62,995 nt of DNA, filler included, from Sanchytrium tribonematis (GCA_018985235.1; 10 parts of 10 records of this genome joined end to end with filler, not necessarily neighbours in it); one strand, 5' to 3'; positions 12,370-59,813 are shown, numbered from the whole stretch's first letter. Translations and numbers: made by a program. Notes: generated from the letters alone by a model not told the origin.

Positions 12370-13619
12370 ATGAGTCATTGGGAAAAAGTTTTAACGGACA
12401 ATATAATTTCATCGGACATCAATCATTCAAAATTGTTGCTTTTAGGAGATAGAAAATCTGGAAAATCTACATTTATACAATCCACGTTCAACACAAATCC
12501 AACCACTGACATTTTATTATCCTACAACTATTTTCCATTTAGGGATATAGAAACAAACGATCATTTGCTCGACTTAGATATATACTCGGTCTCAGAGGCT
12601 TTGGATATAACTTCACATATATTTAGCAAAGAATACTCATTAGATACCTTGTGTTGTATATTTCTAAGTTGGGAAGAACCTCAACTTTTCATCGAAAATA
12701 TTGAAAAATGGCTTAAATTTCTACTGGACGTTGTAGATTTAAGCTTGAAGCGTAAATACACAATTGTTGATAAGGAAAATACCATTTTCATAGATAACGA
12801 AGATCCGAATTTTAAAAAGGTTCAGTTCGAACTAAACGAAGCGCGAACTAAATTAAAACGAGCTCTACAGCTTTTGAGGGAATCTCAAGAGAAATCCGAC
12901 ACATTTGGAAAGGACTTATCGAGACTGGACCTTGTTCCATTAAATGAAGGCTCATTAGAAGTAAATTTAGGGATCCCTATTGTATTTATTACATCTAAAG
13001 TTGATGTATGTCTTAATGTTGGAGACGAATTGGAAATAACAAGTGCCAAGTATGGTTTTATAATGCAAGCTATACGGAAAGTGTCGTTAACAATGGGAGC
13101 GGCACTAATAGCCTTGAACAACAAACTCGAACAAAGTAGAAATGAGTTGTACAGTTACTTGCTATACAGGCTAAATCCAGCCTCATTTAAATTTAATTCC
13201 AAAATAGATGGAATAAACCTTGAATCGCTAGTAATTCCTGCAGGTTGGGATTCTTTACCCAAAATCAAGACCATATCCAATACGTCCAACTTAGAAGAGT
13301 CGTTTTTACTGCAAATGACTTTTGAAAATTGTCATCATGATGTTAAAATATCAGGAAGGTCATATTTTAGAAAGCAATTTCCAAGTGACACGCATGATAT
13401 GGAGACGGTTTTTTCTATTAATTGTAGGATGATATCGGAAAAGCACAAAGTTTGCCAAGTTATGTAGACGGATTGTCTGTACAATTTCCTACTTTAAAGG
13501 AGGGCAACATGGCAGTTGCGAGCAATTTAGAAGCGGCAATTGAAACTCCAGTGGCAGCAACCCCAAAGTCTGATGAATTGAATGACTTTTTCCAAAGTTT
13601 GATAAATAAAAAGAAATAA
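12370..13619 (+). CDS. DYNC1LI: Cytoplasmic dynein light intermediate chain; exons 12370-13407 and 13428-13619
   Basis: P-loop-like GDRKSGKS, NLGIPIVFITSKVD and VIPAGWDS. Removing a 20-nt intron restores the C-terminal effector-binding helix ELNDFFQSLINKKK. Confidence 0.92.
13408..13427 (+). other. 20-nt GT-AG spliceosomal intron
   Basis: gttttttctattaattgtag, phase 0; removal restores the DLIC C-terminal FFxSL motif. Confidence 0.85.
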
Positions 13620-13663
13620 TTGGTTCCATGCTTGCACTTGGCAATTAGAAGGGGATCAGAAAC

Positions 13664-15001
13664 ATGAAATTGGAATTTGCTTTTGTAGGACGAGACTTGG
13701 AAAACAAATTATTTTTATATGGGGATCCCGTTGAGCTTAAAATTGGTGGTAGCATTGCATCCCATCAATTTTTCCACAAACTCGACGGATCTAAGTATAT
13801 TCATATTTATAATGAAACTTCTCATATTTGTGTAACTGAATACCAAGGTTATTATTATATTATCAGTATGCTTTTCGAAAAAATTGAACCACAGACAGGT
13901 TTATTAGATTTTTTGTACAAAAAAAGTGAAACAATTGAATACTTCGATGATATGCTGTTAGAATCAGATATAGAATCTTCGTTAGCTGCATTCATACAAA
14001 TATATAGCCAAACCAAAATAGCTAATTTATTTTTGTTAAACGACAGCATTTGTGAGTTATTTACTGATTCAGATTTAAAATTAAATTCGATTGTTCACTC
14101 GAGGCTAGAAAAATTAAGATGCGACATATACTGGACACCGAGATTTAAAAAAAATAAAGGCAAAAACATACCCTTGATGTTTTTGGACCAAGGAGTCACA
14201 CACAATTGTAATATATCACGTTATTTAGCAAAATATTTAATTTTAAATATGAAATTTTGCAATATCGACCAGCTGCCGAAGGGTCTATCTGCATTCCCCC
14301 GACCAGCTCAATGTCGAAGTAATTTCTTGTCGAAAGCAGATATTGACAATCACTATTACGTATTTAAAAGTGATTGCGAACCTGACAAAATGACCTGCAT
14401 ATGGGTTCCGATACCATTTATTGTTATAGTTTTTGCAATAGCAACAAGGGAAAATTTGAGCGAAATTATGCAAGAAATAGAGTCCGATATAAATCTGACG
14501 CAACGACTTTGTAATACCCATAATTCAATTTTAAAATCGCTTATGCCGAAGAAAAATACTGAGAAGAAGAAGGTTCAATACTCTTTCTATCCGAACACTT
14601 CTTCTTTTCTTCAAGGCAAATTTTATCCCTATTTTATTGACCCTGACAGTTTTGGATTGTCGGCTTGCAAAATTAATCTAAATATTGCGCACATTGTTTC
14701 TTCACTAGTAAGGCGCTATTTATTGGAATTTCAATTGTCCTCTCATGCTGTGGTTATAGCAAAACCGTTTTCGGATAGACTAAAATTAAATTCCAAAGTT
14801 GGTTCATCAGCGATCAATTTAATGAACTTTTGGATACTAAGTAGCGATAAAAAAGTGTCTATTACATATGGAACGCCAGCAAGTGTCATTAGAAGCTGTC
14901 CCGTAGGTGTTAACCTTGACCAATTACCTTGTTCTCAAGCAGATATTTCTCTCTCGGATGCAAACACATTTCTTTCGGCCTTCGAGAAGTCTTTCTTGTA
15001 G
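13664..15001 (+). CDS. Hypothetical protein, 445 aa; N-terminus weakly resembles a longin domain (CCZ1/HPS4/INTU type)
   Basis: Long ORF filling the gap between neighbours; the family resemblance is a by-eye impression only. Confidence 0.7.
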   Translation: MKLEFAFVGRDLENKLFLYGDPVELKIGGSIASHQFFHKLDGSKYIHIYNETSHICVTEYQGYYYIISMLFEKIEPQTGLLDFLYKKSETIEYFDDMLLESDIESSLAAFIQIYSQTKIANLFLLNDSICELFTDSDLKLNSIVHSRLEKLRCDIYWTPRFKKNKGKNIPLMFLDQGVTHNCNISRYLAKYLILNMKFCNIDQLPKGLSAFPRPAQCRSNFLSKADIDNHYYVFKSDCEPDKMTCIWVPIPFIVIVFAIATRENLSEIMQEIESDINLTQRLCNTHNSILKSLMPKKNTEKKKVQYSFYPNTSSFLQGKFYPYFIDPDSFGLSACKINLNIAHIVSSLVRRYLLEFQLSSHAVVIAKPFSDRLKLNSKVGSSAINLMNFWILSSDKKVSITYGTPASVIRSCPVGVNLDQLPCSQADISLSDANTFLSAFEKSFL

Positions 15002-20750: not shown

Positions 20751-22011
20751 TTATACAAATTTCTTTATTGAATTTCCTCTTCTGCTTCTATAAACTGTCA
20801 CTGCTGCAACTAGTCCTGCTTGTGCGATAAAAAAGTATATTAAATACTTCAAAATAGACCATACAGCCTCACTTAATTTAGATTCTGTAACTTTGGCATG
20901 CTCGTCTTTAAAAGAATTTGTTTGGCCTTGCTTCATTAAAAAAGAATACCTGAACTCTAATAATTAGATCTTTTAACTGATCAATTTCTGATTTAAAATC
21001 TCTTTGTAATTCCTGTAATTTGGCAAGAGCGGGTCCAAAATCCACTGTCGTTCCGAAAGAGGATCCACGATTATCTGAATATTTTTGAATTGCATCTGTT
21101 AAAGATTGAAGCTTATTAGAGTCAAAATCTGATAGTTTTGATGATATTTTAGCCATCTCTGATTTAATATTTGAAATCTCGACTTTCAATTCTGTAACTC
21201 CTCCTTTGTCCAACGGTGGTTGCGAAGTCTCTGCATGCTGCTTTTGATCTTCCAGTTTTTTCTCATATTCTTGAACCTTCTTTAATTCTTCGGAAGAAAC
21301 CTCAGGTGCCTTAGAACCGTCTTTTTCCTTGGCATCAAGATCAAACAACAAAAAGGATATTAAATCGTGATCATCTGGATTAATACTTGATTCGGCTCCT
21401 ATAACAATGGAATGATCTTTGGGTAGGTCAATTTTCACTGAGAAGCACTCAATCGTTGAATCGCTATCTCCTAAGGCCAGGCTCAATTGGGACTCCTTAT
21501 AAGTCAGTTTCACTAGGTAATTTTTGAATGAATTTCTATAATTATTAAAGCATCCCTCTTTCCTATATTTGGTGTAATCTCCTGAATTGGCAATGGTTTG
21601 CGCTCCATCAGTTTGCACCAGAGCAGTGTGCTGTCTCATTCCGCTTTGAGAATTACCATTAAATATTATCCCAACACCCTTTAAATTAGGAGCGACGCCT
21701 AAAGGTCCAAAGTTATCAAATTTAGGATCCTCCGCAAAATATATTGCGAAACCATTACCACCATATTGACCACCTGTTACTCTAAATTGTGCTTCGATTC
21801 TAAAGTTTTTATACGGGACTTTTCCGCTTACAACATGTCCTTTTGACCCTACCAAAGAATTTGCCAATCTTAAAGCTAGTGGATTATGTTGTGCTATTTT
21901 AGTTTTCCAAAAAGGAATCTCGCCCACCTTTGGAAAAAAGTAAGGCGTCTTCAGTATAAAATGCCAGTCTAACCTTTCAAATGAAAATAACAAAATTAAT
22001 GTTAGCAACAT
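20751..22011 (-). CDS. L-type lectin cargo receptor (ERGIC-53/LMAN1/Emp47-like); exons 22011-20950 and 20930-20751
   Basis: Lectin motifs GGNGFAIYF, GVGIIFN and DDHDLISF; coiled coil. After a 19-nt intron, a TM segment and C-terminal KKFV di-lysine/dihydrophobic sorting signal. Confidence 0.88.
20931..20949 (-). other. 19-nt GT-AG intron
   Basis: gtattcttttttaatgaag, phase 0; joins the lumenal domain to the TM and KKFV tail. Confidence 0.85.
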
Positions 22012-22046: not shown

Positions 22047-23938
<1,892 letters not shown>

Positions 23939-25998: not shown

Positions 25999-26283
25999 AT
26001 AAACATTTTTCATTTAAAGTTATCAATTGTCACTAAATTTGAAATCGATTGGCACAAATAATGAAGGGCGCATTTATGTCATAGGAAGTAATTCAACTTG
26101 AAGTGAAAATTGAATATTGAAGATATATTAAATCTTGGCATGCTATCCTCAACTGCCCTAATTAGTTACTCTGAAACTGTCGATTTCCCCTGAACGAACA
26201 TTCGATTCGATCCCCATTTTAATGATCGATCAGATACGTATAAAAAGGTATATAAGCCATATTGCCGAATCTTACTCTAGTCA

Positions 26284-27018
26284 ATGATATATTTGATCCC
26301 AGCTATTCTTATAACTGTAGCTAGTCTTTTCGGATGTTGGTTCGCTCAATCTGTCTTTCCTAAGAGAGGCAAAGTGTTTATCCTTATATTAGTGGGATTT
26401 CTTTGCTGTTTAGTAATTGAAGCATCTATTGTGGTTGAGCAGGTCTATAATCAAAAGATGATCAGATCGATAGTTGAATCGATCGCTTACATAGCTGTGT
26501 TTACCATAGTTAATCTGCTTTATGTCCTGAGAATTCAATCTCTAGGAGTCAAAAGAGACCAATTTGCGAAATTCACTGGCCATTTATTCTGGATTTTAGC
26601 CGTTTTGATTGTTTCATTCAATTTGCTGCAGACTTACGGTATAATTTCAGATTGGATTCATTTCTGGGTTACGATATTCCTATTTGCGATAGCCTACATT
26701 ATTGAAACAGTATTATACCACCGACTCATAAAGGCGTCAGATTTTATGCTTGCATACAGACGCCGAGTCAAAAAACGGGTGATTTTCAAGGCCAAGGTTT
26801 ATTTTGTGATCCTCGTTATGCTTGAAGCTTTGTATATGTTCATCAAATGCTTCTATATGAACACTAATTCTATCAAAGATCATGTTAAAGTTTTCTCTTT
26901 CTGTATAAGACTATTTATTGTAATAGATTTCTATAGAGACTTGATAAAAGCCTACAGACAGGACGAAGAAAACGACTATATAGCTGGAAGCTATTTTCAA
27001 TACAATGACTTTGAATAA
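26284..27018 (+). CDS. Compact 7TM membrane protein, paralog 1
   Basis: Seven hydrophobic segments in 244 aa; shares LYxxRIxSLG and RLFIVxDFY with its neighbours. Confidence 0.8.
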   Translation: MIYLIPAILITVASLFGCWFAQSVFPKRGKVFILILVGFLCCLVIEASIVVEQVYNQKMIRSIVESIAYIAVFTIVNLLYVLRIQSLGVKRDQFAKFTGHLFWILAVLIVSFNLLQTYGIISDWIHFWVTIFLFAIAYIIETVLYHRLIKASDFMLAYRRRVKKRVIFKAKVYFVILVMLEALYMFIKCFYMNTNSIKDHVKVFSFCIRLFIVIDFYRDLIKAYRQDEENDYIAGSYFQYNDFE

Positions 27019-27525
27019 TAAAAAATGTATGTTATTTTGCTTTCATGGTAATAAATACAAGAAAAAGTCGCCAGATAGAGAGGACGTCAAATTTCAGCAC
27101 AAATTCCACAAAATTCGACTACCTTGTTTGGTTCAGCAAATAAAAAAGACAGTTTCAGCATCTTTTGCTTTTTTTCGTTCTAGGGTAGTTCCCGTAAGCG
27201 AGATCAAGATCCAGTCCAGAGCTCACAATTGCCAACATGGGGCTGCATGAAAAGGGACTGCGTGGTTGAGTGACGTCCAAACTAATTATGACTCATGAAA
27301 TCACCACCATCTAAAAATATTTCTACGGATCGAAAGGAGATCTCATGCTTTTTTGGAAATACGCAATTGTGGAAAATCAATGATTTGTTAACTGATTGAG
27401 AAGCATTTTTATTTTGGTGTTTTCGATCGCCTAAAATTATTTCATGTTTCAGATCAATATTCACATGCACGTAATGGTGACTCAACCGATAAGTTTAACA
27501 AAACTCCAAGGGCGACTAAATTGCA

Positions 27526-28251
27526 ATGAAACATATTTTAGTCGATATATTTTGCTTTTCGGTTGCTATAATAAGTATAGCCGGCAGCTTGTTTGCTTAC
27601 TCTGTATTTCGAAAAAGAGGGAAAATATTTGGAATGGTGCTACTTGGTTATATATGCTGCAGCGTTTTCGAATGGATGGTACTTGCAAACACTATGTTTT
27701 CTATACCAATAATTAATTTATCAATCACAAATATTGCTTATGTGGTGGTATGGGGTTTGACTCAAATGCTGTATTTAATTCGGATTTATTCCTTGGGAAT
27801 CGAAAAGACTACTAAGAATCGTATAATATCTCTGATCATTTGGATACTACCAATTCTTTCAGTTCTGATAAGTGTATTACAATATAATGCTTTATTGAGT
27901 AATTTTGCAGCGTATGTCCTTTTAATCTCCGTTGAATTTATTTCTTTTGGAGTAGAATCGATGTTGTTTGATCAATTGATGAATGTGATACATCTAATGC
28001 TAGTCTATCGCCCCAAATTAGTACAACGCCTGACAAAAAAATCAGTTTTCTATTTTTATCTTTTGATCGTGACACAAGTCATTTATTTGATAGGTAAGAC
28101 AATTTCTTACAGCTGTCCATTTGATGCTGAGCATATCAAAATTGTGTCTTTTGGGTTAAGGTTGTTCATTGTCACTGATTTCTACAAAGATATTACGAAA
28201 TCATACAGAACAGATGAAGAAATACAAAGCATTGTGTACCCAAATCTTTAA
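27526..28251 (+). CDS. Compact 7TM membrane protein, paralog 2
   Basis: Colinear with paralog 1: SVFxKRGK, LYLIRIYSLG, MLxYR, HIKIVSFGLRLFIVTDFYKDI. Confidence 0.8.
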   Translation: MKHILVDIFCFSVAIISIAGSLFAYSVFRKRGKIFGMVLLGYICCSVFEWMVLANTMFSIPIINLSITNIAYVVVWGLTQMLYLIRIYSLGIEKTTKNRIISLIIWILPILSVLISVLQYNALLSNFAAYVLLISVEFISFGVESMLFDQLMNVIHLMLVYRPKLVQRLTKKSVFYFYLLIVTQVIYLIGKTISYSCPFDAEHIKIVSFGLRLFIVTDFYKDITKSYRTDEEIQSIVYPNL

Positions 28252-28343
28252 AATTAAAATAAATTGAACCATTTCGCTATAAAAATTCAACTAAAAGTGG
28301 CCGTACCGAATAGTTCCGACATTGACACTCCAGTTCGGCTTCC

Positions 28344-28755
28344 ATGAAACTTGCCCTAGCGATTTGGTTATTTCTATCAATTTGCCTAGTCTCTGTGTTC
28401 TTGGGTATTTATTACTGCATTAGTGTCTTCACGAAGAAAAGCAAAATATACTATCTAGTGGTTGCGACCTATTTGTTCAGTGGTGGAGCCGCAGTCTCAC
28501 TCGCGTTACGAAATATAGATGAAAATTGGTGGAGTTTTGGCGTTTTTATCATATCATACTATACTTCTTATCTGATTACAAATTTGCTATATTTTTATCG
28601 TCTTAAATCGATCGGAGGTGAGAATACATCAGTGATCACCCTATGCAAATTTTCATTTTGGTTATTGGCATTATTGATAATTGCTAACAATATTTTGATT
28701 TTTATGGGATCTATTTCTGGTTTAGTCTTTAGTGTATTTGCTATTTTGTTATATT
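28344..28755 (+). CDS. Compact 7TM membrane protein, paralog 3; 3' truncated by the contig end
   Basis: SVFTKKSKIY, NLLYFYRLKSIG, FWLLA. Confidence 0.75.
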
Positions 28756-29537: not shown

Positions 29538-29594
29538 TATGAAAGGGGGATATGCGCAAGTCATTATGGTCAAATGATGGCGTCATTTCATTTA

Positions 29595-30101: not shown

Positions 30102-30234
30102 TATGTCAATGGAATTGAAAGGAATAAATAGTTTAGAGTGCCAATCATTGTACAAAATAGACCTTGGACCAATCAAATTGTCGTATTTTAAATTGTTGAC
30201 TGAGCATTGTGACACAAGAATCATACTAAATAAT

Positions 30235-31254: not shown

Positions 31255-31309
31255 TTGTCTCGAGGGACAATTGCGCAAATTTGATTTTGTTGCATCCTGG
31301 TAGTACAAA
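31225..31309. repeat. Duplicated promoter plus signal-peptide cassette, copy 1
   Basis: Two 34-nt blocks (31225-31258, 31276-31309) identical to 32300-32333 and 32350-32383. Confidence 0.92.
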
Positions 31310-31384
31310 GGAGTGCATTGTTGTACGGTGTCACATTGACTAAAAAATGTAGCAGATGCACGGTGTGTTTTAAATTTCATTTAT

Positions 31385-32329: not shown

Positions 32330-32383
32330 TTGTTACGGGGGATGATTCCCAAATTTGATTTTGTTGCATCCTGGTAGTACAAA
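32300..32383. repeat. Duplicated promoter plus signal-peptide cassette, copy 2
   Basis: Blocks identical to those at 31225-31309. Confidence 0.92.
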
Positions 32384-43431: not shown

Positions 43432-45597
43432 TTACAAATCTTTGTCTGTCGATTCATTTTTCAAAAACTTTAAATCTTTTTTCTTTTTCTTATTTTCTTT
43501 TTTGTTTTTCTTCCGTTGTTCTTTTTCTTTGATTTCCTCTGGAGTTTTCGTACGTTTCTTTTTTTTCTTAGAAAATTCTTTATGCTCTTCTTCGAGCAAT
43601 ATTGGGCGTTTAGCGGATACACCGATTCTTTTTTTGTATTCCAAAAGTAAATTATCTCGTAATTCACAAGACGGGAAATTCGACATATCATAATATTTTA
43701 TGTTGACCTCCAGCAGCCAATTCTGATTAATCGGGGTACAAGTTCTAATATAATCCTGGGCAGTTTGAACCACTTCATTAAACATTACCAAAAATTCCTT
43801 CTTTTTCACGACACTGCTTGGATGAAGCTTGACATCTTGATTGTCTTTCACAGTTTTGTAAGATTTAGCAGTTCTGTTATAGTAAGCTACGAAACTAAAG
43901 AATCCTTCCAAAAGGCACTTTTTAATATTAATTTCATGAAGATTCTTGTTTTCCGGTTCCTTATAGTTTGACTTTTTCGGGAGATATTGCTTGAGTTGTT
44001 GTTTAATACGCACTGCACTATTTAAATTTCTCATATTAAGATAGTTTTCCCAGCACCACTGTTTTTTATCAGAAACTTGGATAAATTCTTTAAAAATATT
44101 TAAAAGTGTAAAGTGATCTCCATTTTGATCTTTAAAATGAGAATGGCAAGAATCAGCTTCTTCCCTTTTGTCAATTGGTCTAAGTAAACAATTTGGAACG
44201 CTAAGCATCGCGATGATGCTCAAAACATCTTCTACACAATCATATTTTGGTGCGGTTAGCACAATTTTCGCATATTCGGGGTCTAGTGGTAAGTCTGACA
44301 TCAAATGGCCTATTTCAGTCATCTGGCCGTCGTCGTCAATGGCTCCGAGATAATTTAGCATTTCTAATGCCCTGATTAAAGTTCCGGGACTAGGCGGATC
44401 CATGTAAGCAAAGTTGACGATATCATCGATGCCAATTTTGAATAATTGAAGAACCACATGCGTTAAATTACTTCTTTGCATTTCAGGATATGTTTGTGGT
44501 ATCAAATCATTAAACGAAGCTTCAGTGTACAATCGAAAACACTTTCCGGGTCTTGTTCTTCCCGCACGACCCGATCTTTGATTCGCGGAGGCTTTTGAAA
44601 TTGGAGTCACTTGCAATGATTGCATCCTCGTCTGTGGATTGTATGCCTTTTGTTTTACGAACCCAGGGTCTACCACATAAACCACTCCATCAACAGTAAT
44701 ACTCGTTTCGGCAATATTAGTCGCCACTACACATTTTCGCGAGGTTTTAGATGCGGGCAAAAAGATTTTTTTTTGCTCGGCAGGATTGAGTTGAGAATAT
44801 AATGGCAAGACAGTTATGGGCTTCAAAGATTTGCAAGACTGTCGGATTCTTTGACAAGCGTCTTCAATTTCGTCTTCACCTGTCAGAAAAACTAAAATGT
44901 CACCTTCATCCTCATATTCATGAATCAGTTTGACAGTTTCAATACTGGACTCTAAATAATCTTTTTGAGGCTTGTCGGCGTAAAATATGTCTACAGGAAA
45001 TGTTCTTCCTGGAATTTTTAATAGTGGTGCGTTGAAAAATGTGCTAAATTTCTCCGAATCCAAGGTTGCACTCATCACGACAATCTTGATGTCCTCTCTT
45101 TTGGTCAGAAGCTCTTTTAATACCCCCATTAGGATGTCAGTAGCCAAGGTCCGTTCGTGAGATTCATCCAAAAGTATAACTTTGTATTTGAGAAGTAAGG
45201 GGTCTGTCATGGCTTCTCTCAACAACATTCCATCCGTCAAGTAAATTAGTTTAGTCTTCATGCAAGTCATGTCCTCAAATCTTATTTTATATCCACATTC
45301 TTTTCCCAACTCAACATCCATTTCTGTTGCAACTCTTTCGGCAACACTCATTGCAGCGACACGACGTGGCTGAGTACAAGCAATAACGCCGCTTTCTTTT
45401 AAATAATGCTCTGCAGCGAACTGAGGCAATTGTGTTGTTTTACCTGATCCAGTTTCTCCGATAATGAGAAATACTTTATTATTGTCTAACATTTCAACAA
45501 ACTCGTTCTTATACTTATAAACAGGTAGTTTTTTGCGAGTCTTAAGTATTTCATCGTGTTTCTGCGAATATTTTGAAGTTGTGAAAGGATTTATCAT
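43432..45597 (-). CDS. PRP43: DEAH-box RNA helicase Prp43/DHX15
   Basis: INPFT...RKKLPV, GETGSGKTTQLPQF, DESHERTLATDILMG, SAT, QRSGRAGRTRPGKCFRLYTE; first ATG at 45597. Confidence 0.92.
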   Translation of the reverse strand: MINPFTTSKYSQKHDEILKTRKKLPVYKYKNEFVEMLDNNKVFLIIGETGSGKTTQLPQFAAEHYLKESGVIACTQPRRVAAMSVAERVATEMDVELGKECGYKIRFEDMTCMKTKLIYLTDGMLLREAMTDPLLLKYKVILLDESHERTLATDILMGVLKELLTKREDIKIVVMSATLDSEKFSTFFNAPLLKIPGRTFPVDIFYADKPQKDYLESSIETVKLIHEYEDEGDILVFLTGEDEIEDACQRIRQSCKSLKPITVLPLYSQLNPAEQKKIFLPASKTSRKCVVATNIAETSITVDGVVYVVDPGFVKQKAYNPQTRMQSLQVTPISKASANQRSGRAGRTRPGKCFRLYTEASFNDLIPQTYPEMQRSNLTHVVLQLFKIGIDDIVNFAYMDPPSPGTLIRALEMLNYLGAIDDDGQMTEIGHLMSDLPLDPEYAKIVLTAPKYDCVEDVLSIIAMLSVPNCLLRPIDKREEADSCHSHFKDQNGDHFTLLNIFKEFIQVSDKKQWCWENYLNMRNLNSAVRIKQQLKQYLPKKSNYKEPENKNLHEINIKKCLLEGFFSFVAYYNRTAKSYKTVKDNQDVKLHPSSVVKKKEFLVMFNEVVQTAQDYIRTCTPINQNWLLEVNIKYYDMSNFPSCELRDNLLLEYKKRIGVSAKRPILLEEEHKEFSKKKKKRTKTPEEIKEKEQRKKNKKENKKKKKDLKFLKNESTDKDL

Positions 45598-45740
45598 GTT
45601 TCTTAATATCTCCCATCTCCTTTCCAAATTTAAATGCAATTCCCGAGCATGAAGAAATAGCAATTAGCCCACCATAAGTGGGCAACCAACCTTATAAAAT
45701 GCGAAAATTCATACTTGTCACTCACCTTCCCAAATATCCC

Positions 45741-46061: not shown

Positions 46062-47750
46062 GTGTGGCACAATGCAAGAAAGAATGAAACCAGGCAATAG
46101 AGGTAAAAGAGACTCGCAAATGTTGATGATGCGATGGCTTAACAAATATTATTATGAAACAGGCATGAGTCCATTGGAATTGGAAATGACTTGGCACTGT
46201 AAATACCAAATTGGTGTGGATCCGAGTGAGTATGAGTATTGTTTGATGGTGGATGCAGATACGATTTTAACAAAACAGTGCTTGATGCCTTTAATGAGCC
46301 GTATGCACCATGATACTCAAATTATGGGTTGCTGCGGAGAAACTAAATTGCAAAATGAATCACAAAATATGGTCACGATGATGCAGGTGTATGAATATTA
46401 TATTTCTCATCATTTGAGCAAGGCTTTTGAATCTTTATTTGGAAGTGTCACTTGTTTACCAGGTTGTTTCTGTTTATATCGAATTAAACAACCCATTAAG
46501 AACAGTGGGAGCGTAGAATGTAATTTATTATTTATTTAGTGAAAGGAAAACCATTATTAATTTCTAATCAGATTATTTCTGATTATGGTACGAATGAAAT
46601 TGATACGCTGCATTTGAAGAATTTATTGAGTTTGGGAGAAGATCGTTATTTGACTACTTTAATGTTGAAATACTTTAATTATCAAAAAATGGTGTTTGTG
46701 AGTGATTCTGTTTGTTTAACAATGGCACCAGATCAATTTAAAGTTTTAAAATCTCAAAGAAGAAGATGGATTAATTCTACTGTACATAATTTAGCAGAAT
46801 TATTGAATTTGGATTCATTATGTGGATTTTGTTGTTTTAGTATGAGATTCATGGTTTTATTGGATTTGACGAGTACGGTGGTTGGACCAGTCGGTGTTTT
46901 ATATTTGGGATATTTGGTTGGACTCATTATTTATGGATTAATCACAAATACATTGGGATTCTTTCCATTGACCTCGTTTTTATTATTGAGTGCGATTTAT
47001 GGATTGCAAATGTTGATTTTTATTATTAAGCGAGATTTTCAACATGTTGGTTGGATGGTCATTTATATTTTTGCAATTCCTGTATTCCATTTAATTCTTC
47101 CATTGTATAGTTTTTGGCATTTTGATGATTTTACTTGGGGAAATACGAGAATGATTCAAGAAGATGGAAAGAAAATTGTGGTAAATGAGGGTGAATTTGA
47201 TGTGAATATGATTCCTCACAAGACTTGGAATGAATATGAAGTACAAATGAAGGAATTGCAGATTGAGCGAGGCACTGTGAATGCGCCACAACCAGGTGTG
47301 GAAAATACAAAACTTGGCAATTCTACTCAAAATAGTCAAACTTCTTTATTAGCGAAACCCTCTAATCAAATGAAATCTATGAATCGTCAAGTGAGTTGGT
47401 TTGTAGATGAGAATACACCTCAATCTAACAGAATGAGTATTTACAAGTCGCCTCAGCCTCAAAATAATTCAATGGGCCAAATGATAACTCCAACAGGTAT
47501 GGCTGTGAAATTGAGCACACCAACTACTCCAACTTCCAATAATAACAATTTGAATAAGAGAAGCATTTATGTAAATGATTTGCCAAGTAAAGAAGTGGAT
47601 GACGATTCCTTATTGAAAAGTATTGCAATTATTAAAAAGAATGGAGAATTTACTAGGAAACAAATACTGGTCATGTTGCAACAAGAATACATGTGTGAAC
47701 TGGGAAAGGATAGGATTTATGAATTACTCGATCAAATGGAATTGAAATAA
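46062..47750 (+). CDS. Chitin synthase, division 2 (class V/VII-like), 5' truncated; exons <46062-46519 and 46540-47750
   Basis: [72 protein letters not shown]-like C-terminus. Confidence 0.94.
46520..46539 (+). other. 20-nt GT-AG intron
   Basis: gtaatttattatttatttag, phase 1; joins the two chitin synthase ORFs in frame. Confidence 0.9.
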
Positions 47751-47800
47751 ATGATTTTTAATTAAGGCAAATTTTTTGTTTCAGCCCCGTAGGTCAAGAA

Positions 47801-50235
47801 ATGGAAGCGAAATGGATATCAATTTTGACAAAACTTCAATTTTCATTTGGACAGTCAGTGAAAAGTGAGATACCAAAAGAGATGGTAACATTCTTAGAAG
47901 GAAATGATAAATTGCAATTTGTGGCATTTGACAAGCAATTGAGGTGTTCTTCACGATTTATGCCAAATTTGGTGAATGTATATATTATCAAGGACCAGGA
48001 GATCACAATGGGAGTGCTACAGTGTAACCAATTTGATGCTGCATATAGTTTATATCAAGTCTATGGTAATTTGGTGGAAGATGCCTTTGTGAAGCAGCAA
48101 TTGGACAAAAGTGAAAAATATATTGGTCATATGACTATTAAAGAACGATTCAACATGGATTTGAAAACAGCTTCACAGCTCTCATTCCCTGAATTCGAGA
48201 AAGTGGGCGAAAAATGGTGCAATGAGCTTGAGTTGATTCTGTTAGAAAGTGAGCAGTTGCAAAAGCAGGATGACGAATTAACAGGACCCAGAGCAGAACT
48301 GATATACTGGCAACAAAGAGAGTATAAATTTAAAGAGATTCTCGACCATTTGGGGTCCGATATTTTTCGGAAACTCAAGGAGAAGCTTTATGAAGAAGTC
48401 AGCCCAGTGTATGAACACTTGTGCAGCCTGGAAAAAAAAATTCTTCATCACTATAGTGAAGCTCATGACAACAGTTCTTTCTTGGCACCGTTAGATGAGT
48501 ACTCCCAAGGACTTTGTAGCCTCAATTATGAGAAATTGCTTCATTCTATTGGACCCATCATGAATATTTTATACGCGGTGTATTGTGGCTCAAAATACTT
48601 TAATACAGCAGACAGAATAACCAGCCTTTTGATTAAAATCACAAACGAAATTTTATCAACCGTAAAAAAGATTTTAGCAACTAGACTAAAAAACAATTAC
48701 TACGAAGATGCAAAAACCTATATTGATGATTTGCCGAAGGTCTTGGAAATTTATAAAACCTATACTAGTGAGTTCCAACAAATCAAAATGAAATTGAGTT
48801 TGCAAGAAAGTTTGCCTAAATTTGAATTCAGTGAAATGTATGTTTTTGGGAGACTTGAAGCATTCACCAAAAGACTTAAGAAGATTGTTGATTTTTGTGA
48901 TACGATTCAAGTATTAGAAAATTTCAAATCAATTCACATAGATGGATTTGGTCCTTTGCTTAAAAAATATGGAACATTTCACAATCAAATTCTCCAGAAA
49001 AAGACGGAATGTTTGGACTACAAACGACCCGAATTTGACCAAGACTATGAGTTTTTAAAGTCTCAAAGTGGGATTCTCTTAGCTGATCTTCAAAGTCACT
49101 TTTCTTCCTTTGTACAAAGATATGAAGATGCTAAATTTATATTACTGAAATTAAAAACCATTGAACCTTTACAAAAGCACTTTGGTCTTGATTTCTCTCC
49201 TCAATTCGATTTGATGTTTTCAAGATTTGCAACAATTACTTTACCAAATGTGAAAAAACATTTTGATAAATATAAAGACGACCCAAGGCCTTGGAATCTT
49301 GATGACACTTTCACTATGGGAAAATTAAAATGGTGCAAATCGATGGTGGCATTAATTCAAAATCCGCTAGAAGCTTTGTGTACAATTAAAGATTTTTCTA
49401 ATCATCCTGATTACTCAAAATGTGTTAGAAATTACAATAAATTGATGAAGGCGATTATGGCTATTGAGAATATGGTTTTGGATCAATGGAAGTCTCAAAT
49501 AGACCATGCAGTTGACAGTTTATCAGCTTCCATATTTATTGTAGATGATAAGTGCACCTTCTATGTAAATTTAGATCCGATGATTGAAGATTATGTGAGA
49601 GAAGTGGAATATTTTCAGTCGAATGATTACTCTATTCCAGAAAACGTCATTGCGATTCTTGACGCTTGGCCAACAATCCTTCAGGTTAAAAAAGACCTAG
49701 AAGATATTGTAACGGAGAGAAATGTTTTGCTAAAAGATCACTGGACTCCCCTAAAAGACTATTATCTCAACTTTTCTAAGTATTTCGATAACAAATTGGC
49801 CTTGGGTATCATCTCAATCAATTGGAATTCCTTTTCATTAGTTAAATACACTCGAGAACTAAAAACGATTTTTGGCGACGCTCTTCTTGTAAAGTCGAGA
49901 ATCAACGAAATTATAAAAAATGCTGTAGAGCCCATACTTCACAAGTTATCCCACATATTATGGTTCATCGTCAGCCAAACCGACAAAGTTTCCGTCGGCA
50001 ATTACAAAGATGAATCTTTTAAACGTATAGGTAGATGTGTTTCCGCTGCAAACAATTTGATGTTACAAGTTGAGCAGTCTGGATTTACCATAAAAACCCT
50101 TCTTTCTAATTTCCTTAAGAAATTGGGTATCTTGACAGATGAATCTCTTTCAGTAACGTTTGAAAAAGTTCTTGGCCACTTGAAATCGCAAGTTGTGGAA
50201 AATCTTGTGTCTGGAATCAAATGGTCTATGGAGGA
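47801..50235 (+). CDS. Axonemal outer-arm dynein heavy chain (DNAH5/DNAH8, gamma-type) N-terminal region; 3' truncated
   Basis: GPRAELIYW, SKYFNTADRITSLLIKITN, FEFSEMYVFGRLEAFTKRL, LDYKRPEFDQDY. Confidence 0.85.
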
Positions 50236-51403: not shown

Positions 51404-52132
51404 TCATTTTGTGATTCTCTCGTTGCCATAAATTGTATATGTAGTAGAATCTTTTCCTTCTGTAATGTAAAAATTATCAAATTGAGTGTCAACTCCTGTT
51501 CTAACCCATGTGTGGTGTTGTCTATTCCAAATATAAATGTATCCAGAAGAAGTGATTCCAAATAAATTGTCACCTACTAATTGAATTTGACTCATTTGTT
51601 TTACGGATCTTAATTTTTTAAGCCCTTTACCAAAATCGAATTGCACGCTATAATTGACTAAATCGTCATTCATTTTGTAAATTGAAAGACAGTATCTGCC
51701 ATCACTTGTCATGGTAGAACTGCCTACATTTTGTTCACTCTTAAGAGTCTTTAACTTACCATTCAACATATTGTAAATGGCAAATTGATAGTTTGTGACT
51801 CCGGCAATCACATTTCCATTATTGGCCAAGTAAAATTGATCCAACTCAATGTTTTTGACACCTTCGTTTTGAAACCAATTATTTGTTGATGCATATTCAT
51901 TTTTGCACCAAATCTGACGTTTGTTGTTGCTAATGCAAATTCGAGTTCCTTGGAGGTCCATTGCAAAATGATGGACTTCCCCTGGTGCTTCTACTTTTTT
52001 CCATTCATTGTTTTTATCGTTGATATCCATGCAAAACAATTCATAATTGTGATTGTTTGCACAAATTGTAGTTCCAGAGACAGCATATCCAAATGCATTT
52101 TCAAGAGATATTTGTGAGTGAGAGAATTTCAT
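51404..52132 (-). CDS. Tectonin-like beta-propeller lectin, paralog 1
   Basis: Repeats of W...[IV]..[FI].[ML].G..IC....IWC; SQIQLVGDNLFGITSSGYIY; ATG at 52132 preceded by CCC. Confidence 0.72.
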   Translation of the reverse strand: MKFSHSQISLENAFGYAVSGTTICANNHNYELFCMDINDKNNEWKKVEAPGEVHHFAMDLQGTRICISNNKRQIWCKNEYASTNNWFQNEGVKNIELDQFYLANNGNVIAGVTNYQFAIYNMLNGKLKTLKSEQNVGSSTMTSDGRYCLSIYKMNDDLVNYSVQFDFGKGLKKLRSVKQMSQIQLVGDNLFGITSSGYIYIWNRQHHTWVRTGVDTQFDNFYITEGKDSTTYTIYGNERITK

Positions 52133-52319
52133 TGTTTTAAAAAGGGAGATGCGGTATTTGTAGTTATTTGATGCGTGCAAGTCATTTATGAGTGGGTGCA
52201 AGATACTTGCATCATTTCTGTGTATGGATGCAAGACACGTGCAGCTTGTCGTAGAGTGGTTGGAAAAGTGTTTTGCAATTCTGTTATTGGTAAATCAAAT
52301 AATGAAAGACCATCATTTA

Positions 52320-53006
52320 TTATTTTGAATCATCTGGTACGCCGTATGGAGTCAATGTAATTTCTCCATTTTGTGGTCGTTCAACAATATGAAATTGCTT
52401 AAATTTGTTTGGTAAAAATAATTCAAAAGATCCAGTTTCACTTCTTTTGTAAATTTTACCATCCTCTCGCAATCCAAAAATATTGTTGTTTGTTACTTGG
52501 ACTTGAGTATACCTATACCCAGAAGTCAATGTTAAAATGGTAGATTCTGGTTGTAATTGGCATTGAATGCATCCATCCGTGGAAATCACACAAAATCGAC
52601 CATTTGGTGCCACTGAAGAAGAGTTAATTGTTTTTTTTGTGGGACTTGATAGATGATTGTTGGCATCTCTTGTAACAAATTGTTTGTTTAAATCAATACC
52701 CGCAATGCCATCTTCGCTTAAATCAATTTGTTGCAAATATAAATTGGAAACTGGATTCCATCTTAAATCTGCAGATAATTTTTCAATATCGTTGCACCGT
52801 ACTCGATTTTTAGTATCTGTGTAACAGATTCTAGTTTTATAAACTGCAAATGATTTCCCCTTTTTGGCAATTCGAGTCATTCCTGTTCCTGTTTCTGCTA
52901 AATAGTCGCAATGCAATTCTAATGCAGTATTGGTAGCACAAATAAATGTATCTGATGCTGCATAACTTGTTGAATCTTTTAAGGAAGCAGATGATAAGAA
53001 ACTCAT
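52320..53006 (-). CDS. Tectonin-like beta-propeller lectin, paralog 2
   Basis: YAASDTFICATN, LQQIDLSEDGIAGID, TQVQVTNNNIFGLREDGKIY. Confidence 0.72.
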   Translation of the reverse strand: MSFLSSASLKDSTSYAASDTFICATNTALELHCDYLAETGTGMTRIAKKGKSFAVYKTRICYTDTKNRVRCNDIEKLSADLRWNPVSNLYLQQIDLSEDGIAGIDLNKQFVTRDANNHLSSPTKKTINSSSVAPNGRFCVISTDGCIQCQLQPESTILTLTSGYRYTQVQVTNNNIFGLREDGKIYKRSETGSFELFLPNKFKQFHIVERPQNGEITLTPYGVPDDSK

Positions 53007-53128
53007 TGTTTGTTTAAGGAACGACAGCTATTTATAACTTTTTGGAAATTAATAGACATGTGTGATTGGATACTGTGTGCGTGCAGAGGCGCTGTGATTC
53101 GACACAGGGTGATTGCAGAGTCTGTTAA

Positions 53129-53473
53129 TTAATTGGACAAGTGTTTTGCAAAACCCAAGGGACTTGATCCTTGAGGTTTTGATTGAAATATCCAAATGGA
53201 ACTCTGCAAAAGAAATCGAGATATATATTCATTAATGTAAAAAATTATTGCTTCTTGCCATACTCCATAAACTTCAAATCTTTCCGAATAAACTTTTCTT
53301 AATTTCGAACCAATTTTCTTGTCATGAATACTGATATAGAACTGTGAATATGAGCGTGCAGTATTAGATTTCAATGGCACTTTTGCCCATCCATTGCTTA
53401 GCACATAAATTTGGCCATCGGTTCCTAAGCCATAGGCTGTACCTCCAAATGATTAAACGCGAGTAATTTGCAT
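53129..53473 (-). pseudogene. Tectonin-like fragment with an in-frame TAA
   Basis: MQITRV*SFGGTAYGLGTDGQIYV...SQFYI...VYG; TAA at 53455-53453 where paralogs have Gln. Confidence 0.55.
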
Positions 53474-53607
53474 CGAGCCAGGTTTCTGGTTAGGTTTCTT
53501 CTGTGTATAAATGGCACAGATCGTTTTGCAGTTTTATGATTGGTGAATCATTCTGTGTCATTTATCGTGTTTTACACGTTGAAGTACGTTAAAAGTCATT
53601 CTATTTA

Positions 53608-54306
53608 TTATTTTTCTGCGCCATAAATCATAGCATATCCCTGAACATCTCTCACATAAAATTGACGGAATAAATTTGGAATATTCATGTTTATCCAAGT
53701 ATTTTTGTTTAAATCATATTTGTATATCTTGCCAGTATCAGTGAGTGCATATATATTGGTACCAGCTAGTTGAATCTGAGTAAATCTTATGGATTTGTTT
53801 GAATGTAATATTTTCAAATCATCACCAAATTGACATTTGATACATCCATCTGATTTTAAAATGCAATAATTTCCATTTATATCCATGGAAGATGATTTGA
53901 CATGAGTATCGATGGCTCTAGACCACTGGATTTGTGGATATTTGGAAATATAAAATAAACCATCAACTCCAATTCCACTGATTTGATCACCTGCCAGATT
54001 GATTTGTTGTAAATCACCATTAATTTGATTCCAATTGCCATTTGGTAAATTCGAATTGCACCAAATTTGATGATTTAATTTGGTAATGCAGATATTTCGA
54101 CCATTAATGGAAATAGTATCCACCTGTTCAATATTTGAGATCAAATCCCACTTTCTAACATATGCAATGGTCGTATCCATGCAAAATATTTGATTGAATT
54201 TGTTGGTGGCGCAAATGAAAGAGTCAGATGCCACATATTGGATACCATTTTCTAATTTATAGTTGGAAATGATGGAATTCATTATTTGTTGGTCATTGGA
54301 ATTCAT
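53608..54306 (-). CDS. Tectonin-like beta-propeller lectin, paralog 3
   Basis: WNQINGDLQQINLAGDQISGIGVDGLFY matches the tectonin blade consensus; 232 aa is about six blades. Confidence 0.78.
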   Translation of the reverse strand: MNSNDQQIMNSIISNYKLENGIQYVASDSFICATNKFNQIFCMDTTIAYVRKWDLISNIEQVDTISINGRNICITKLNHQIWCNSNLPNGNWNQINGDLQQINLAGDQISGIGVDGLFYISKYPQIQWSRAIDTHVKSSSMDINGNYCILKSDGCIKCQFGDDLKILHSNKSIRFTQIQLAGTNIYALTDTGKIYKYDLNKNTWINMNIPNLFRQFYVRDVQGYAMIYGAEK

Positions 54307-54605: not shown

Positions 54606-56856
54606 TTAGATGAAGCCATAAAATCTGATGCTAAATTGGCAGAGTTAGACTCGATCATGAAATCTGGCAACAATTTGTTGACATCTAAATTGATTAGCAC
54701 TTGTTTACCTAATGGTCTTCAAAAAGCTTTTCCAGAAAATGGTTTTCAACTAATGACTGGTACTGGTGCTAAAGGTTCGAACGTTAATGCTAGCCAAATT
54801 AGTTGTTGCCTAGGACAACAAGAACTCGAAGGTAGACGACCACCCATTATGCAAAGTGGGAAATCATTACCTAGTTTCCGAGCAAAAGATATACATCCGA
54901 GAGCTGGTGGATTTATAGCAGACAGATTTTTGAGCGGTATAAGACCTCAGGAATACTACTATCATTGTATGGCAGGAAGGGTATTTTTCTTTAATTTAGG
55001 AAGGTCTGATCGATACAGCCGTCAAAACTGCTAGATCGGGATATTTACAAAGATGTTTGATAAAGCATTTGGAAGGGTGCTCCGTTGCCTATGATAATAC
55101 TGTTAGAGATACCTCCGACAAAAATGGAGCTGTAATACAATTCTTATATGGAGAAGACGGTTTGGATGTTATGAAATCAAATGGTATAAACGACTTGGAG
55201 TTTTTGAAATCAAATTACAAATCCATGAAATCCGCCAATCAAGACGATGTTGTGAGAAAATTGCCAAGCAATGGTAAAATAGAAAAACAAATGGCGAAAT
55301 CCTTGAAAAAGAAACACAAGTATGATCCATGTATTAACATTTATTCCCCGTCTCAAAATCTAGGCAGCACAAGCGAAAAATTTAATGAAGCATTGACCAG
55401 TTTCTCTAATGATGAGTCTTTTAAAACTTTTATGAATCTTCAATACATGAAGGCCCTTGCAGAACCAGCAGAAAGTGTTGGCATATTGGCAGCTCAATCT
55501 ATAGGCGAGCCCAGTACACAAATGACGCTGAATACCTTTCATTTTGCTGGATTTGGTGCAAAAAATGTCACACTCGGTATCCCACGATTAAGAGAAATTC
55601 TCATGACCGCTAGTGCAAATATAAAAACCCCTATGATGCAAGTCAAGGTTTTAAATGAAGTCAGTGACAGAAAACTCGATCGATTTGTGAAGTCCTTAAA
55701 GAAGATTCAGTTTGCAAATATTGTACAAAAGATTACTGTTAATGAAAGCTTAAAGTATACATCGCATGACAAAATGAGGCAGTATGATATTAAAATTGAA
55801 TTGCTCAACAAAAAAACCTGCAAACAAATTTATAACCTCAAATTGGACGATGTTTTAGATTGTCTTGAAAAACGACTTGTACCTAATTTGATTCAACTAA
55901 TTAACAAAACATTGAAATCTAAAGAAAAAATTAGCATAGAGGTTCAAGGCGAAGAAGAGGACGCTCTAATGGAAGGTTTGGAAGAAATTATCAATGATGA
56001 AATTGGTGCCGAAAAGATTGAAGATGAAAATGACGAAGCCATAGAGGATAAAAAACAGGATGTGGAATACGAGGATAATGAAGACGTGGAAATGGTAGAT
56101 TCTGATCATGGAAATGAAGCTGTTTTGAAAGAATTTGAGAAGAAAACAGCGGAGGATATTGACGAGCTTTTGGTTGCTTCTGCTCGCAGAAATTTGACTA
56201 CCAAATTTGAATACGTTTCAGAATTTGACTATGATAACAAAAAGGGTACTTTTTGCAGCTTGTCAATTAGCATTCCTAATGAAAAAATTACAAAAGCCTT
56301 AAAGTCTGTAAATTCCTTCAAACTGATGCCGCTGCTAGAGACAGTTTGTCACAAAGTAGTTTGCAGACAGGTTCCTGGCGTATACAAAGCATATGAAAGC
56401 AAGAATGTGGCAGGAGAAAAAATAGTCGTAGTAGAAGGAAATAATTTAAAGGCGTTGTGGTCTTTTGCGGAAATTATAGATATTAATGATATTTACACAA
56501 ATGACATCGCAGCAGTATTGAAGGTTTATGGTGCTGAAGCAGCTCGACAAGCTATTGTTAAAGAAATTTCCCAAGTCTTCGATGTTTATGGAATTGCAGT
56601 TGATATAAGACACTTGTTTTTAATTGCAGACTATATGACGAGGGAAGGTGGATTTCAACCATTTAATAGAATAGGTTTGGCAAAACATCCTTCGCCAATG
56701 CTGAAAATGTCATTTGAAACAACTTGCCAAGTTTTGCAAGACACAGTCATGTTTAATGGTAAAGACAATGGCAAAAGTCCAAGTTCTAAGCTGGTTCTTG
56801 GAGATATTGTAGGTTCCGGAACTGGGAGTTTTGATATAATGGTGGAAAGTAAATGA
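54606..56856 (+). CDS. RPA1: RNA polymerase I largest subunit, 5' truncated; exons <54606-54980 and 55000-56856
   Basis: [25 protein letters not shown]; spliced bridge helix [45 protein letters not shown]; acidic Pol I expander region; no CTD. Confidence 0.97.
54981..54999 (+). other. 19-nt GT-AG intron in the RPA1 bridge helix
   Basis: gtatttttctttaatttag; exact removal restores the invariant [14 protein letters not shown]. Confidence 0.95.
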
Positions 56857-56862: not shown

Positions 56863-58761
56863 TTATATTTTTTCGTATTTTCCTATATATCTTTTATCAG
56901 CCCAAGCAAGCCTGCCAATACTAATTTTTTCATGTAACTTTTGGCTGTTGGTGGGCCTTTTGATGAGAAATGAAATGGAATGTGCACCACCATAACTATT
57001 GAAGGATAGTGGGAATAGACGGGCAGATTCATCAATCTCATCCAAATATTCTGTATTCTCTAAATTTTTGACTTTTTTGGTTGTGAGCGAGACTTGGTAT
57101 CTCTTGATTTTGATCGGAGGGCCATCCTCTTGGTGTTGGTTCTGATGCATATTTCTGATAGTCCTATATCTGTAACCAATATATAAGATAGATGCCATTA
57201 ATATGCCAATAAAAGAGCTCATGATTGTAAACAAAACAATTTCTACGGTATTTCCATTTCCACAATATCCTATATTTCTGACCTGCTGTACTCTCAGCTC
57301 CCCGATTAACGGCGTACTGTAATTGTGGCTGAGCTTGAAAAAGAGTGGGCCAATATACCAGTCCATTTCACTACCCAAAATATTGATTTCTGGATTCATT
57401 GATGTGAGAGAGTTTGTATTTCTTAAAAAGTATGGTACACTTTGAAGTTTAAAATCTACTGGATACAAAAACCTACTTTGTATACTAATGTCTGAGCAAC
57501 TATCTTCCAAATAATCGAGCCGTATCCACAAACCTTCCGTTGGGATACGTATTTCGTATCGCTTGTCAGGCTCAATTGTTTTATGTAAAGGGCATTCGTT
57601 TAATATGCGAAAACTAAATTCTTTTGAATATCCTGTGGTTGAACAGATATCATTAGACCACCCACATCCCGGGGAAGAATTACAGGAGAAGCAGTCATAT
57701 TGCAAATTGCAATAGTCAACTAAGTTAAAAAAATATACAATTTGTACAGTTATTGTGAAGTGATCTTGTTATATTCAATTTGCTGGATGAATTTTCGTAA
57801 TTGAAAAGTCTCTTTCCAGGACCCTCGTATAATTGCTCATCTTTAACAAACAAGCGAGATCCTCTTTTAGGAATTAAATCAATAGTTTCAAGAGAGAGAC
57901 ACCTTTCATCGAATAAAAAATATGCACTGATTGCTGAGGATTCTTTAGAGCTCATCCGAAATGGACTGACGACCTGTCCAATAGTATAGTTCTTATATGA
58001 AATGTAATGATTGTAAAAGACATTTGGATTTTTAATGGTGGTCTGGAACCAAATTCTGGAGCTTTTTGAATAGAACCAGATATTGCTCATGAACACAATG
58101 AGAAGATCAGGGTTTATGGCAGATTGTTGTATGCCATATATAATACCCCTAGGTACTCTACTTAGTCGATTTAAAGTTATCTTGTCATTCGAGTCGATTA
58201 AAACATCAAAGATCCCGCTAGATGTATCAGCTAGAACTAAGCTATTGTTAAAGTAAGTATATGTGAAGAAACCATTATTATAATGATATATTTGCTTCCA
58301 ACCGTTTTCACTGTAAACTGATATGTTGGAATTAAAATTTTGGTCAAAATATGCATACTGAAAAGGTTCCCAAAAATCATACTGTCCACCAATTAATATG
58401 TCTGTATTATTTAAAGTAAATGTATCATGTAAAAATAGACTTGGTGTAGTATAATTAATTAATGTTCCTGAATGTGTAATGGAAAAGTTAAACATTTGCA
58501 TATTTGCTCTTCCACCAATTAAATAAATACTATTGTTTTTTTCCAATAAAGAGTAGTCGAGCTGTTCAAATCTGTTAGAATTACAAAGATTAACGTCATT
58601 GTTTGAATTTGATGTGCTGTTCGATTCCACCTCCAATACAAGATCCGCACCACTAGTAATATTTACAAAGCAAACTGGTTTTTCTATGTAGTCTACACAA
58701 ACTGTGTAGTTTTGCGAATGGCACATTGAACCATTTTTAGAAGCATTCAATGCAATCCTGT
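56863..58761 (-). CDS. Attractin-like single-pass surface glycoprotein (kelch-like repeats, PSI domain, TM), 5' truncated; exons >58761-57739 and 57719-56863
   Basis: Kelch-like IYLIGG and ILIGG; many NxS/T sequons; PSI-like CNLQYDCFSCNSSPGCGWSNDIC; TM IVLFTIMSSFIGILMASILYIGY. Confidence 0.65.
57720..57738 (-). other. 19-nt GT-AG intron
   Basis: gtatatttttttaacttag, phase 1; joins ORFs 57725-58750 and 56863-57705 in frame. Confidence 0.85.
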
Positions 58762-58861
58762 NNNNNNNNNNNNNNNNNNNNNNNNNNNNNNNNNNNNNNN
58801 NNNNNTTAATTAATTAANNNNNNNNNNNNNNNNNNNNNNNNNNNNNNNNNNNNNNNNNNNN
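58762..58861. other. Artificial contig spacer
   Basis: N44-TTAATTAATTAA-N44. Confidence 0.98.
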
Positions 58862-59813
58862 CTGCATAAAGCCGGCTCTATATTGAGCAAAATGGCGGAC
58901 ATGAGTAGATTCAATCAAATCTGCCATATTGTCACTTATTAAAAGTCTCCTAAGCTTAGGAACATCTGTCTGTGTATCATCATCCACTAAATTAGTAAGA
59001 ATTACATTTAATCGAGCCCCAACTATATTTACGCACAGGAGCACTCTTTCCAGTCTTATCTTTAATGCTTTCATTAGCACCCACTACAGCATAGGGATAA
59101 TGTTGCAAAATGTCTGAAACTTGATCTTTTCCTTCGCCTGAATTCCAAGGATATACTGGAATCTCAAATTCCTTTAATGAAGCAAGAATTGATTCTTTGA
59201 ATTTTGTTAATTCGTCGGGTGTAAATGCATCTCCCTTTGAAATTACAGGTATTACATTACACCAATTTGAAAGTGTTTTCAAGGCAAGCACATCGAGTTC
59301 TTTCAAACCATGTCCTGTAGGAGGGATAAAATAAAGTATACAGTGAATTCTGGTATCTTGTATATGTTTTCTTTCAGTGGACCTCTCAATATTCAAATGA
59401 CTTTCGTATTGTGCCTTTATATACGCCAAAATTGGTTCGAGATCTGATGATCGATTCAGTGTTAAGCCAAAACCTACTGTATCAAGTAGAGTTAGCCGCA
59501 ATTTAACACCATTTTCTTGTAATAATTGTTCAAATTGTTGCATTTGAATGGTCTTGGCAGGTCTGCTCGAATGAAGTAAAATATTGGTATGAAAGAGAGA
59601 ATTAATGAAAGTAGATTTCCCAAGACCTGTTTCGCCGACTATCATCAAATTGAATGTGTATTCTTTACATTTTGCTTGCTTTAAGGCATGTTCGCTAAAT
59701 GCTTCTATTCCAACCGGGCCTCTTAAAGAAATTTGTTGGTAGTCAGTAGGTGCATCTTGTGGATTTGCGGATCCAAATCGACCTTTATGTTGAAGAGCAT
59801 ATTCCAAAGGCAT
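58862..59813 (-). CDS. Septin, 3' truncated; exons 59813-59006 and 58986-<58862
   Basis: FNLMIVGETGLGKSTFINSLF, DTVGFG, DTRIHCILYFIPPTGHGL, NVIPVISKGD; spliced septin-unique element RKYSWGSIKLDDDTQTDVPKLRRLLI...HFAQYR. Confidence 0.94.
58987..59005 (-). other. 19-nt GT-AG intron
   Basis: gtaattcttactaatttag (contains CTAAT), phase 1; restores the septin-unique element. Confidence 0.92.

Follow-up and report, generated by a model that had tools for sequence, protein, structure and literature searches.

Seven genes in the 62,995 nt of Sanchytrium tribonematis DNA analysed here (GCA_018985235.1; ten contigs joined by N-spacers, contig GC content 32–38%, hereafter the window, in whose positions all coordinates are given) are each interrupted by a segment of 19 nt (n = 5) or 20 nt (n = 2) with GT..AG ends, and we consider these segments to be real tiny introns with a probability of about 0.9. 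With only slightly less confidence, they are predicted to be major-spliceosome (U2-type) introns, removed in a ruler-like manner with a fixed branch point. A sequence-only reading of this DNA had listed the seven segments on four independent contigs, and all were present (contigs 1, 7, 9 and 10), with an open, homologous frame regained at each site once the segment was removed. Uniformly tiny introns of probable spliceosomal type in a zoosporic fungus, as proposed in that reading, give the best account of the ends, frames, junction homology and internal motif of the segments. We infer the splicing of all seven from sequence alone.

Putative splice junctions and the shared internal motif

The introns were located mid-gene or near the 3′ end of their genes, and in four cases homology fixes the junction exactly or nearly so. 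In the gene for the proteasome ATPase RPT2 (minus strand, exons 23349-22690 and 22670-22047), a 19 nt phase 0 intron (22671..22689) lies within the Walker A motif, between GTGK and TLL. Among 122 proteins examined, two lacked the motif, and GxPGTGK is followed by TL in 118 of the 120 motif-bearing proteins, with the window's own unspliced open reading frame (ORF) and the distant protein P0199 as exceptions. The gene for the RNA polymerase I large subunit RPA1 has a 19 nt phase 0 intron (54981..54999, plus strand) between MAGR and EGLID, and MxGR is followed by EGL in 119/120 proteins, the exception (P0243) having the same unspliced tail as the window. The Pfam profile is contiguous (1-230, then 231-269) across the 19 nt phase 1 intron of the septin gene (58987..59005, minus strand, branch region CTAAT), and nearly contiguous (144-294, then 297-525) across the 20 nt phase 1 intron of the chitin synthase gene (Chitin_synth_2; 46520..46539, plus strand), which has its putative branch A at position 15 (−6, counted from the intron end). 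The first ATG of RPT2 (minus strand) was also found to overlap that of COQ7 (plus strand) in a CATG palindrome (23347-23350), a head-to-head arrangement that leaves no gap between the two genes if COQ7 starts there.

For the other three genes, homology sets the frame and not the exact boundary. The dynein light intermediate chain (DLIC) gene (plus strand, exons 12370-13407 and 13428-13619) contains a 20 nt phase 0 intron (13408..13427) with TAA at nt 12–14 and a putative branch A at 14 (−7), and its exon 2 regains the C-terminal LNDFFQSL helix; a C-terminal motif of the FFxxL type was present in 89 of 127 DLIC matches >400 aa. The L-type lectin gene (minus strand, exons 22011-20950 and 20930-20751) matches ERGIC-53 (E 3e-21) and is split by a 19 nt phase 0 intron ending in AAG (20931..20949); exon 2 contributes a hydrophobic segment and the terminal KKFV, similar to the KKFF signal of ERGIC-53. 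The last of the three is a 19 nt phase 1 intron (57720..57738, minus strand) in the gene for a membrane protein whose cysteines form a PSI-like motif; for this PSI-type gene the earlier label 'attractin-like' was not confirmed, as Pfam gave no match and the similarity to PSI-type proteins was weak (E 0.44). The earlier statement that intron length is 'fixed to the base' thus holds for three to four of the seven introns (RPT2, RPA1, septin and nearly chitin synthase), since homology sets no more than the frame in the remaining three.

The seven introns share the consensus GTA(W)-T-rich-T12-W13-A14-Y15-N-W-A-G. G1, T2, T12 and W13 were each found in 7/7 introns, A3, A14 and an A at −6 each in 6/7, and positions 4–11 contained T, A or C only. 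An A at 14, which equals −6, was present in all five 19-mers, T-W-A-Y with its A at 14 and/or −6 in 7/7, and TAA at nt 12–14 in 5/7 introns, and a fixed, ruler-type branch point as in Stentor is likely. A scan of the window with the motif gave 31 matches of 14–30 nt; matches of 19 nt numbered 7 versus 1.0 expected (2/7 probably by chance) and those of 20 nt numbered 2 versus 2.5 expected. GT..AG ends arise by chance at 0.0032 per register, with 1–3 registers per site. A blind scan of the window for GT..AG frame joining returned 555 candidates without a length peak, and frame joining alone is therefore uninformative.

Minor-spliceosome (U12-type) introns have RTATCCTT at the 5′ end and TCCTTAAC at the branch. 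This class was rejected, as U12 signals were present in 0/7 introns; two start with GTAT but go on with TC or TT. One additional in-frame, stop-free segment of 21 nt with the same ends (GTAAT...TTATTTAG; 14208..14228, plus strand, within an ORF of 450 aa) could be a chance match or an unrecognised 3n intron, and may be nothing, since 1.5 such 21 nt matches are expected by chance in the window. An 18 nt in-frame candidate in a dynein gene (7731-7748) was rejected because alignment of the unspliced protein with human dynein shows no insertion at this place.

Based on established spliceosome chemistry, the 5′ GTA would be read by U1 and U6, and U2 would pair with the T-rich T-W-A-Y box, leaving the A at position 14 bulged. 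Branching at A14 would create a lariat loop of ~14 nt, and the AG located five to six bases past the branch A would be used without a polypyrimidine tract. Intron length would then result from adding two spacings, each almost constant, and each 20 nt intron would be one base longer on a single side of the branch A, the 5′ side in chitin synthase and the 3′ side in DLIC.

Lineage of the window organism and intron turnover in its relatives

Sanchytrids are tiny parasites of algae. By protein comparison the window organism is a sanchytrid (Sanchytriomycota), with Amoeboradix gromovi as nearest named relative, yet distinct from it, as follows from Prp43 and RPA1 identities and an RPA1 tree. The gene for the spliceosome-disassembly helicase Prp43/DHX15 (43435..45600, minus strand), uninterrupted and full-length, was used as lineage marker, and its product is 67% identical to that of A. 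gromovi (P0004 in EukProt), 68% to P0005 and 54–56% to six other aligned orthologs; for RPA1 exon 1, identity with A. gromovi P0244 reaches 89%. A quick maximum-likelihood RPA1 tree of 19 rows grouped the window with A. gromovi and P0245 (Shimodaira–Hasegawa-like approximate likelihood-ratio test (SH-aLRT) 100), and joined this trio with six Blastocladiomycota-side rows (SH-aLRT 100). Since sanchytrids group with Blastocladiomycota, intron shortening likely arose independently of microsporidia. In metagenome scans, a three-sequence Prp43 alignment matched at least 80 loci, with none sanchytrid-like among the matches listed (identity ≤56%), and a separate scan for RPT2 with an 11–24 nt gap at GTGK gave 0 matches.

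The contig with the chitin synthase gene also carries the N-terminal part of a dynein heavy-chain ORF (47762-50233, plus strand, cut by the contig end), with DNAH5/outer-arm gamma as best match (E 4e-50) and no cytoplasmic dynein match at 1e-10. This ORF is at odds with the reported absence of axonemal dyneins from sanchytrids (PMC8371127), a trait that is reported rather than diagnostic, and the conflict concerns one contig only.

The relatives (A. gromovi, P0005, P0122, P0242, P0245, P0372 and P0373) were compared as proteins only. In RPT2 of A. gromovi (P0241), P0122 and P0242 the GTGKTLL motif is unbroken, so the window's intron is absent there, and RPA1 of A. gromovi (P0244) and P0245 is likewise uninterrupted at the window's intron site; intron positions therefore turn over within the sanchytrids. 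As the introns are rare and their positions differ among sanchytrids, gain or loss appears to continue under the size limit. The three RPT2 ORFs all stop at 361 aa, after FQIHT followed by G/C-x-x-x-stop (CSLN, GIYY and GNTN, each then stop), which is the outcome expected if all three had a different phase 1 intron in common, starting with GT and bringing a stop codon into frame at nt 12–14; the window's own phase 1 introns of 19 nt read CNSY-stop and CIFF-stop, and the pattern is expected by chance at 0.03–0.07 per sequence. The two sanchytrid-like DLIC representatives, P0372 and P0373, end near the window's DLIC intron. GT..AG ends at a length of 19 nt and with A14 are compatible with the P0373 tail VTPLHIG, as they are with 100/4110 background V-peptides, and the tail decodes to DIPKAQPFKAYV versus DIGKAQSLPSYV in the window (DIPKAQ versus DIGKAQ), with 19 nt being both the shortest feasible and the best-scoring length from the homologous start; the P0373 tail may thus lend weak to moderate support to a 19 nt intron. 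Because of the shared RPT2 stop of three relatives and the P0373 tail, tiny introns are probably a phylum-wide property. The RPT2 ORF of P0199, from an unrelated eukaryote, is likewise interrupted at GTGK, where V is the next residue, which hints at a same-site intron, and the GTGK site may thus be an old or repeated target.

For all seven split genes (7/7), EukProt contains an unspliced fragment that agrees letter for letter, and A. gromovi RPT2 is truncated there at 361 aa. The published proteomes of sanchytrids were predicted using TransDecoder on genomic contigs (PMC8371127), which explains why the tiny introns were overlooked.

Alternative explanations and other genes of the window

Several observations weigh against spliceosomal removal of phylum-wide tiny introns. 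The support for splicing comes from sequence comparison, a single-base indel is able to open the frame at every site at a cost of 6–7 extra residues, and the 7-versus-1.0 excess of 19 nt motif matches is circular because the scan used a motif taken from these seven introns themselves. In the window, Rfam detected no small nuclear RNAs, and no spliceosomal proteins other than Prp43 were seen. The stop in the RPT2 tails could also be the TAG of a 14 nt intron or belong to an intron of greater length, and the tail sequences, known as proteins, come from three mutually related organisms. For P0373, decoding with free start and length is not significant (109/200 random targets reach the score), fixed-site nulls are variable (4, 92, 21 and 110 of 1000 for 6, 8, 12 and 15 residues), and decoding of the P0372 tail yields no feasible solution. 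The RPA1 tree is a quick version without bootstrap.

The tiny introns could be real and yet make up one portion of a population of mixed lengths, or be specific to this species, with most sanchytrid introns being longer. The sample is seven introns, which is compatible with a genome-wide share of longer introns of up to ~35% (95% bound). The relatives, whose intron lengths are deduced from peptides only, lack the RPT2 and RPA1 introns, and about half of the window ORFs are without a homolog for comparison. Against this stand the tiny size of 7/7 introns on four contigs and the stop at nt 12–14 common to RPT2 of three relatives. Furthermore, no longer intron breaks any window gene that is covered by Pfam or by a homolog, among them a dynein ORF of 4079 aa (39 putative genes and ~51.7 kb of coding DNA in the window, giving ~0.14 introns per kb of coding DNA), and we consider this alternative unlikely. 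Artefacts of amplification or assembly, or insertions that turn the genes into pseudogenes, would be in keeping with the short, low-coverage contigs (EukProt contig labels), the assembly of the published sanchytrid genomes in single-cell mode (PMC8371127) and the ability of single-base indels to open frames. Seven occurrences of GT..AG at 0.003 per register, together with a shared internal motif, are not expected from such events, and the genes affected are essential housekeeping genes that are otherwise intact. The inserts are 79–90% AT and overlap with flanking sequence by at most 6–9 nt, so they are not duplications and a tandem-duplication artefact was rejected; single-base error was also rejected, as opening the frames in this way leaves 6–7 extra residues which are absent from RPT2 and RPA1 homologs. 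A decayed Ty3 element and a tectonin-like fragment in the window have frameshifts without such inserts, and P0243 implies that another assembly has the same RPA1 insert, on a contig of greater length (possibly from the same reads); an artefactual origin is very unlikely.

Bypass of the segments without a spliceosome, by ribosomal frameshifting or hopping or by endonuclease-type splicing, is countered by the GT-AG ends and TAAY-type box, which are hallmarks of spliceosomal introns, and by the presence of Prp43, while a frameshift alone would add 6–7 residues to the RPT2 Walker A motif and to the invariant RPA1 motif. Short introns of microsporidia are spliced in <20% of transcripts (PMC6349667), which makes retention conceivable, and overall we regard bypass as extremely unlikely. 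It is reasonably probable that Sanchytriomycota as a whole splice almost only introns of 19–20 nt with a fixed 14 nt lariat, the shortest in Fungi including microsporidia, and that these arose independently in a group next to Blastocladiomycota with normal introns, are still gained and lost, and have been overlooked because splicing was left out of account in predicting the public proteomes.

Contig 1 is very tightly packed along its whole length. Elsewhere, the window contains a Ty3/gypsy-type retroelement (reverse transcriptase, RNase H and integrase; 33172-37380, minus strand) with two frameshifts without intron motifs, and four tectonin-like beta-propeller paralogs in tandem (51407-54306, minus strand; weak Pfam matches), one of which is broken (53132-53600). 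Several PAS domains, one of them LOV-like (Pfam PAS_9, PAS and PAS_3), occur in a protein (39633-41303, minus strand) that resembles White Collar-1 and is a possible blue-light sensor. Two tandem families, apparently lineage-specific (26281-28754, plus strand, and 28857-32332, minus strand), comprise three multi-pass membrane proteins, and three proteins, located around a cysteine dioxygenase, whose N-termini resemble signal peptides. Finally, a P-loop ATPase fragment of bacterial-type appearance, cut by the contig start (50337-50753, plus strand), has a weak Zot-family match (E 9e-6).

Comparison with known tiny-intron systems

In fixed-length systems of the Stentor, mikrocytid or nucleomorph type, nearly all introns fall within a range of 1–4 nt; the window sample is 7/7 introns of 19–20 nt in 63 kb. 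The heterotrich ciliates have introns of 15–16 nt in Stentor coeruleus, with the branch A as 10th of 15 or 11th of 16 nt, i.e. 6 nt from the end (PMC9505925), and of 15 nt in Fabrea salina (PMC9004412). The sanchytrid introns share with these the GU-AG ends, AU-richness, one or two lengths and, for their putative branch A, a fixed place six bases from the end, but are longer (19–20 nt), have a predicted loop of ~14 rather than 10 nt, occur at ~0.14 per kb rather than in thousands, and belong to a fungus, where they are known from DNA alone. The Bigelowiella natans nucleomorph has almost 900 introns of 18–21 nt in 283 genes, without a discernible branch motif (PMC6009652); the length range and GT-AG ends are alike, whereas these introns are dense and reside in the remnant nucleus of an endosymbiont, and those of the sanchytrid have a branch-like box and reside in an ordinary nuclear genome. 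Mikrocytids have introns of 16–17 nt (224 in Mikrocytos mackini) and a documented reduced spliceosome (PMC10245619). They resemble the sanchytrid in being parasites with few introns of very narrow size and conserved sequence in housekeeping genes, and differ in being Rhizaria with introns 3 nt shorter. Introns are ~25 nt in Encephalitozoon cuniculi and ~30 nt in Rozella (PMC6349667), which are likewise holomycotan parasites with short introns; these are longer, however, and the microsporidian ones are 5′-biased, frequently found in genes for ribosomal proteins and inefficiently spliced. Myxobolids and dicyemids (median 22–27 nt; PMC13644364) are also parasites, with a 5′ signal cut to GTa and little or no polypyrimidine tract, but are animals with broader intron lengths and a weaker branch signal, which shifts away from the AG as length grows. 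Intron densities of 1.30 in Allomyces and 3.93 in chytrids have been reported (PMC8476143), as against ~0.14 per kb in the window; the published values are based on conserved orthologs, which makes the comparison a rough one.

The sequence-only reading had named nucleomorphs and heterotrichs as the known carriers of such introns, to which mikrocytids (16–17 nt) and myxozoans (median 22 nt) have to be added, and the sanchytrid introns are thus one more convergent case. That reading had noted neither the branch-point motif nor the sanchytrid affinity. It had also proposed an independently miniaturised spliceosome; the spliceosome may be reduced, and Prp43, the one spliceosomal protein seen in the window, is full-length. 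Its suggestion that they were undescribed for a zoosporic fungus agrees with the literature searched (most subscription journals and supplements being outside the search), which contained no sanchytrid report and no report of fungal introns shorter than ~25 nt. In their accessible text, PMC8371127 and PMC10459994 use the word 'intron' once each, in a reference title, and the accessible part of PMC9010356 holds nothing relevant to sanchytrid introns.

If RNA confirms splicing, these would be the shortest introns that we found reported for any fungus, adding the first true-fungal case at the lower size limit of splicing, with a loop of ~14 nt falling between Stentor (10 nt) and microsporidia. 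Because close relatives are intron-normal and well studied, it would become possible to ask which parts of the spliceosome change as introns shrink. Standard gene finders and read mappers miss introns of such size, and since seven genes stand as unspliced fragments and A. gromovi RPT2 is cut, sanchytrid gene counts and some claims of gene loss may need rechecking.

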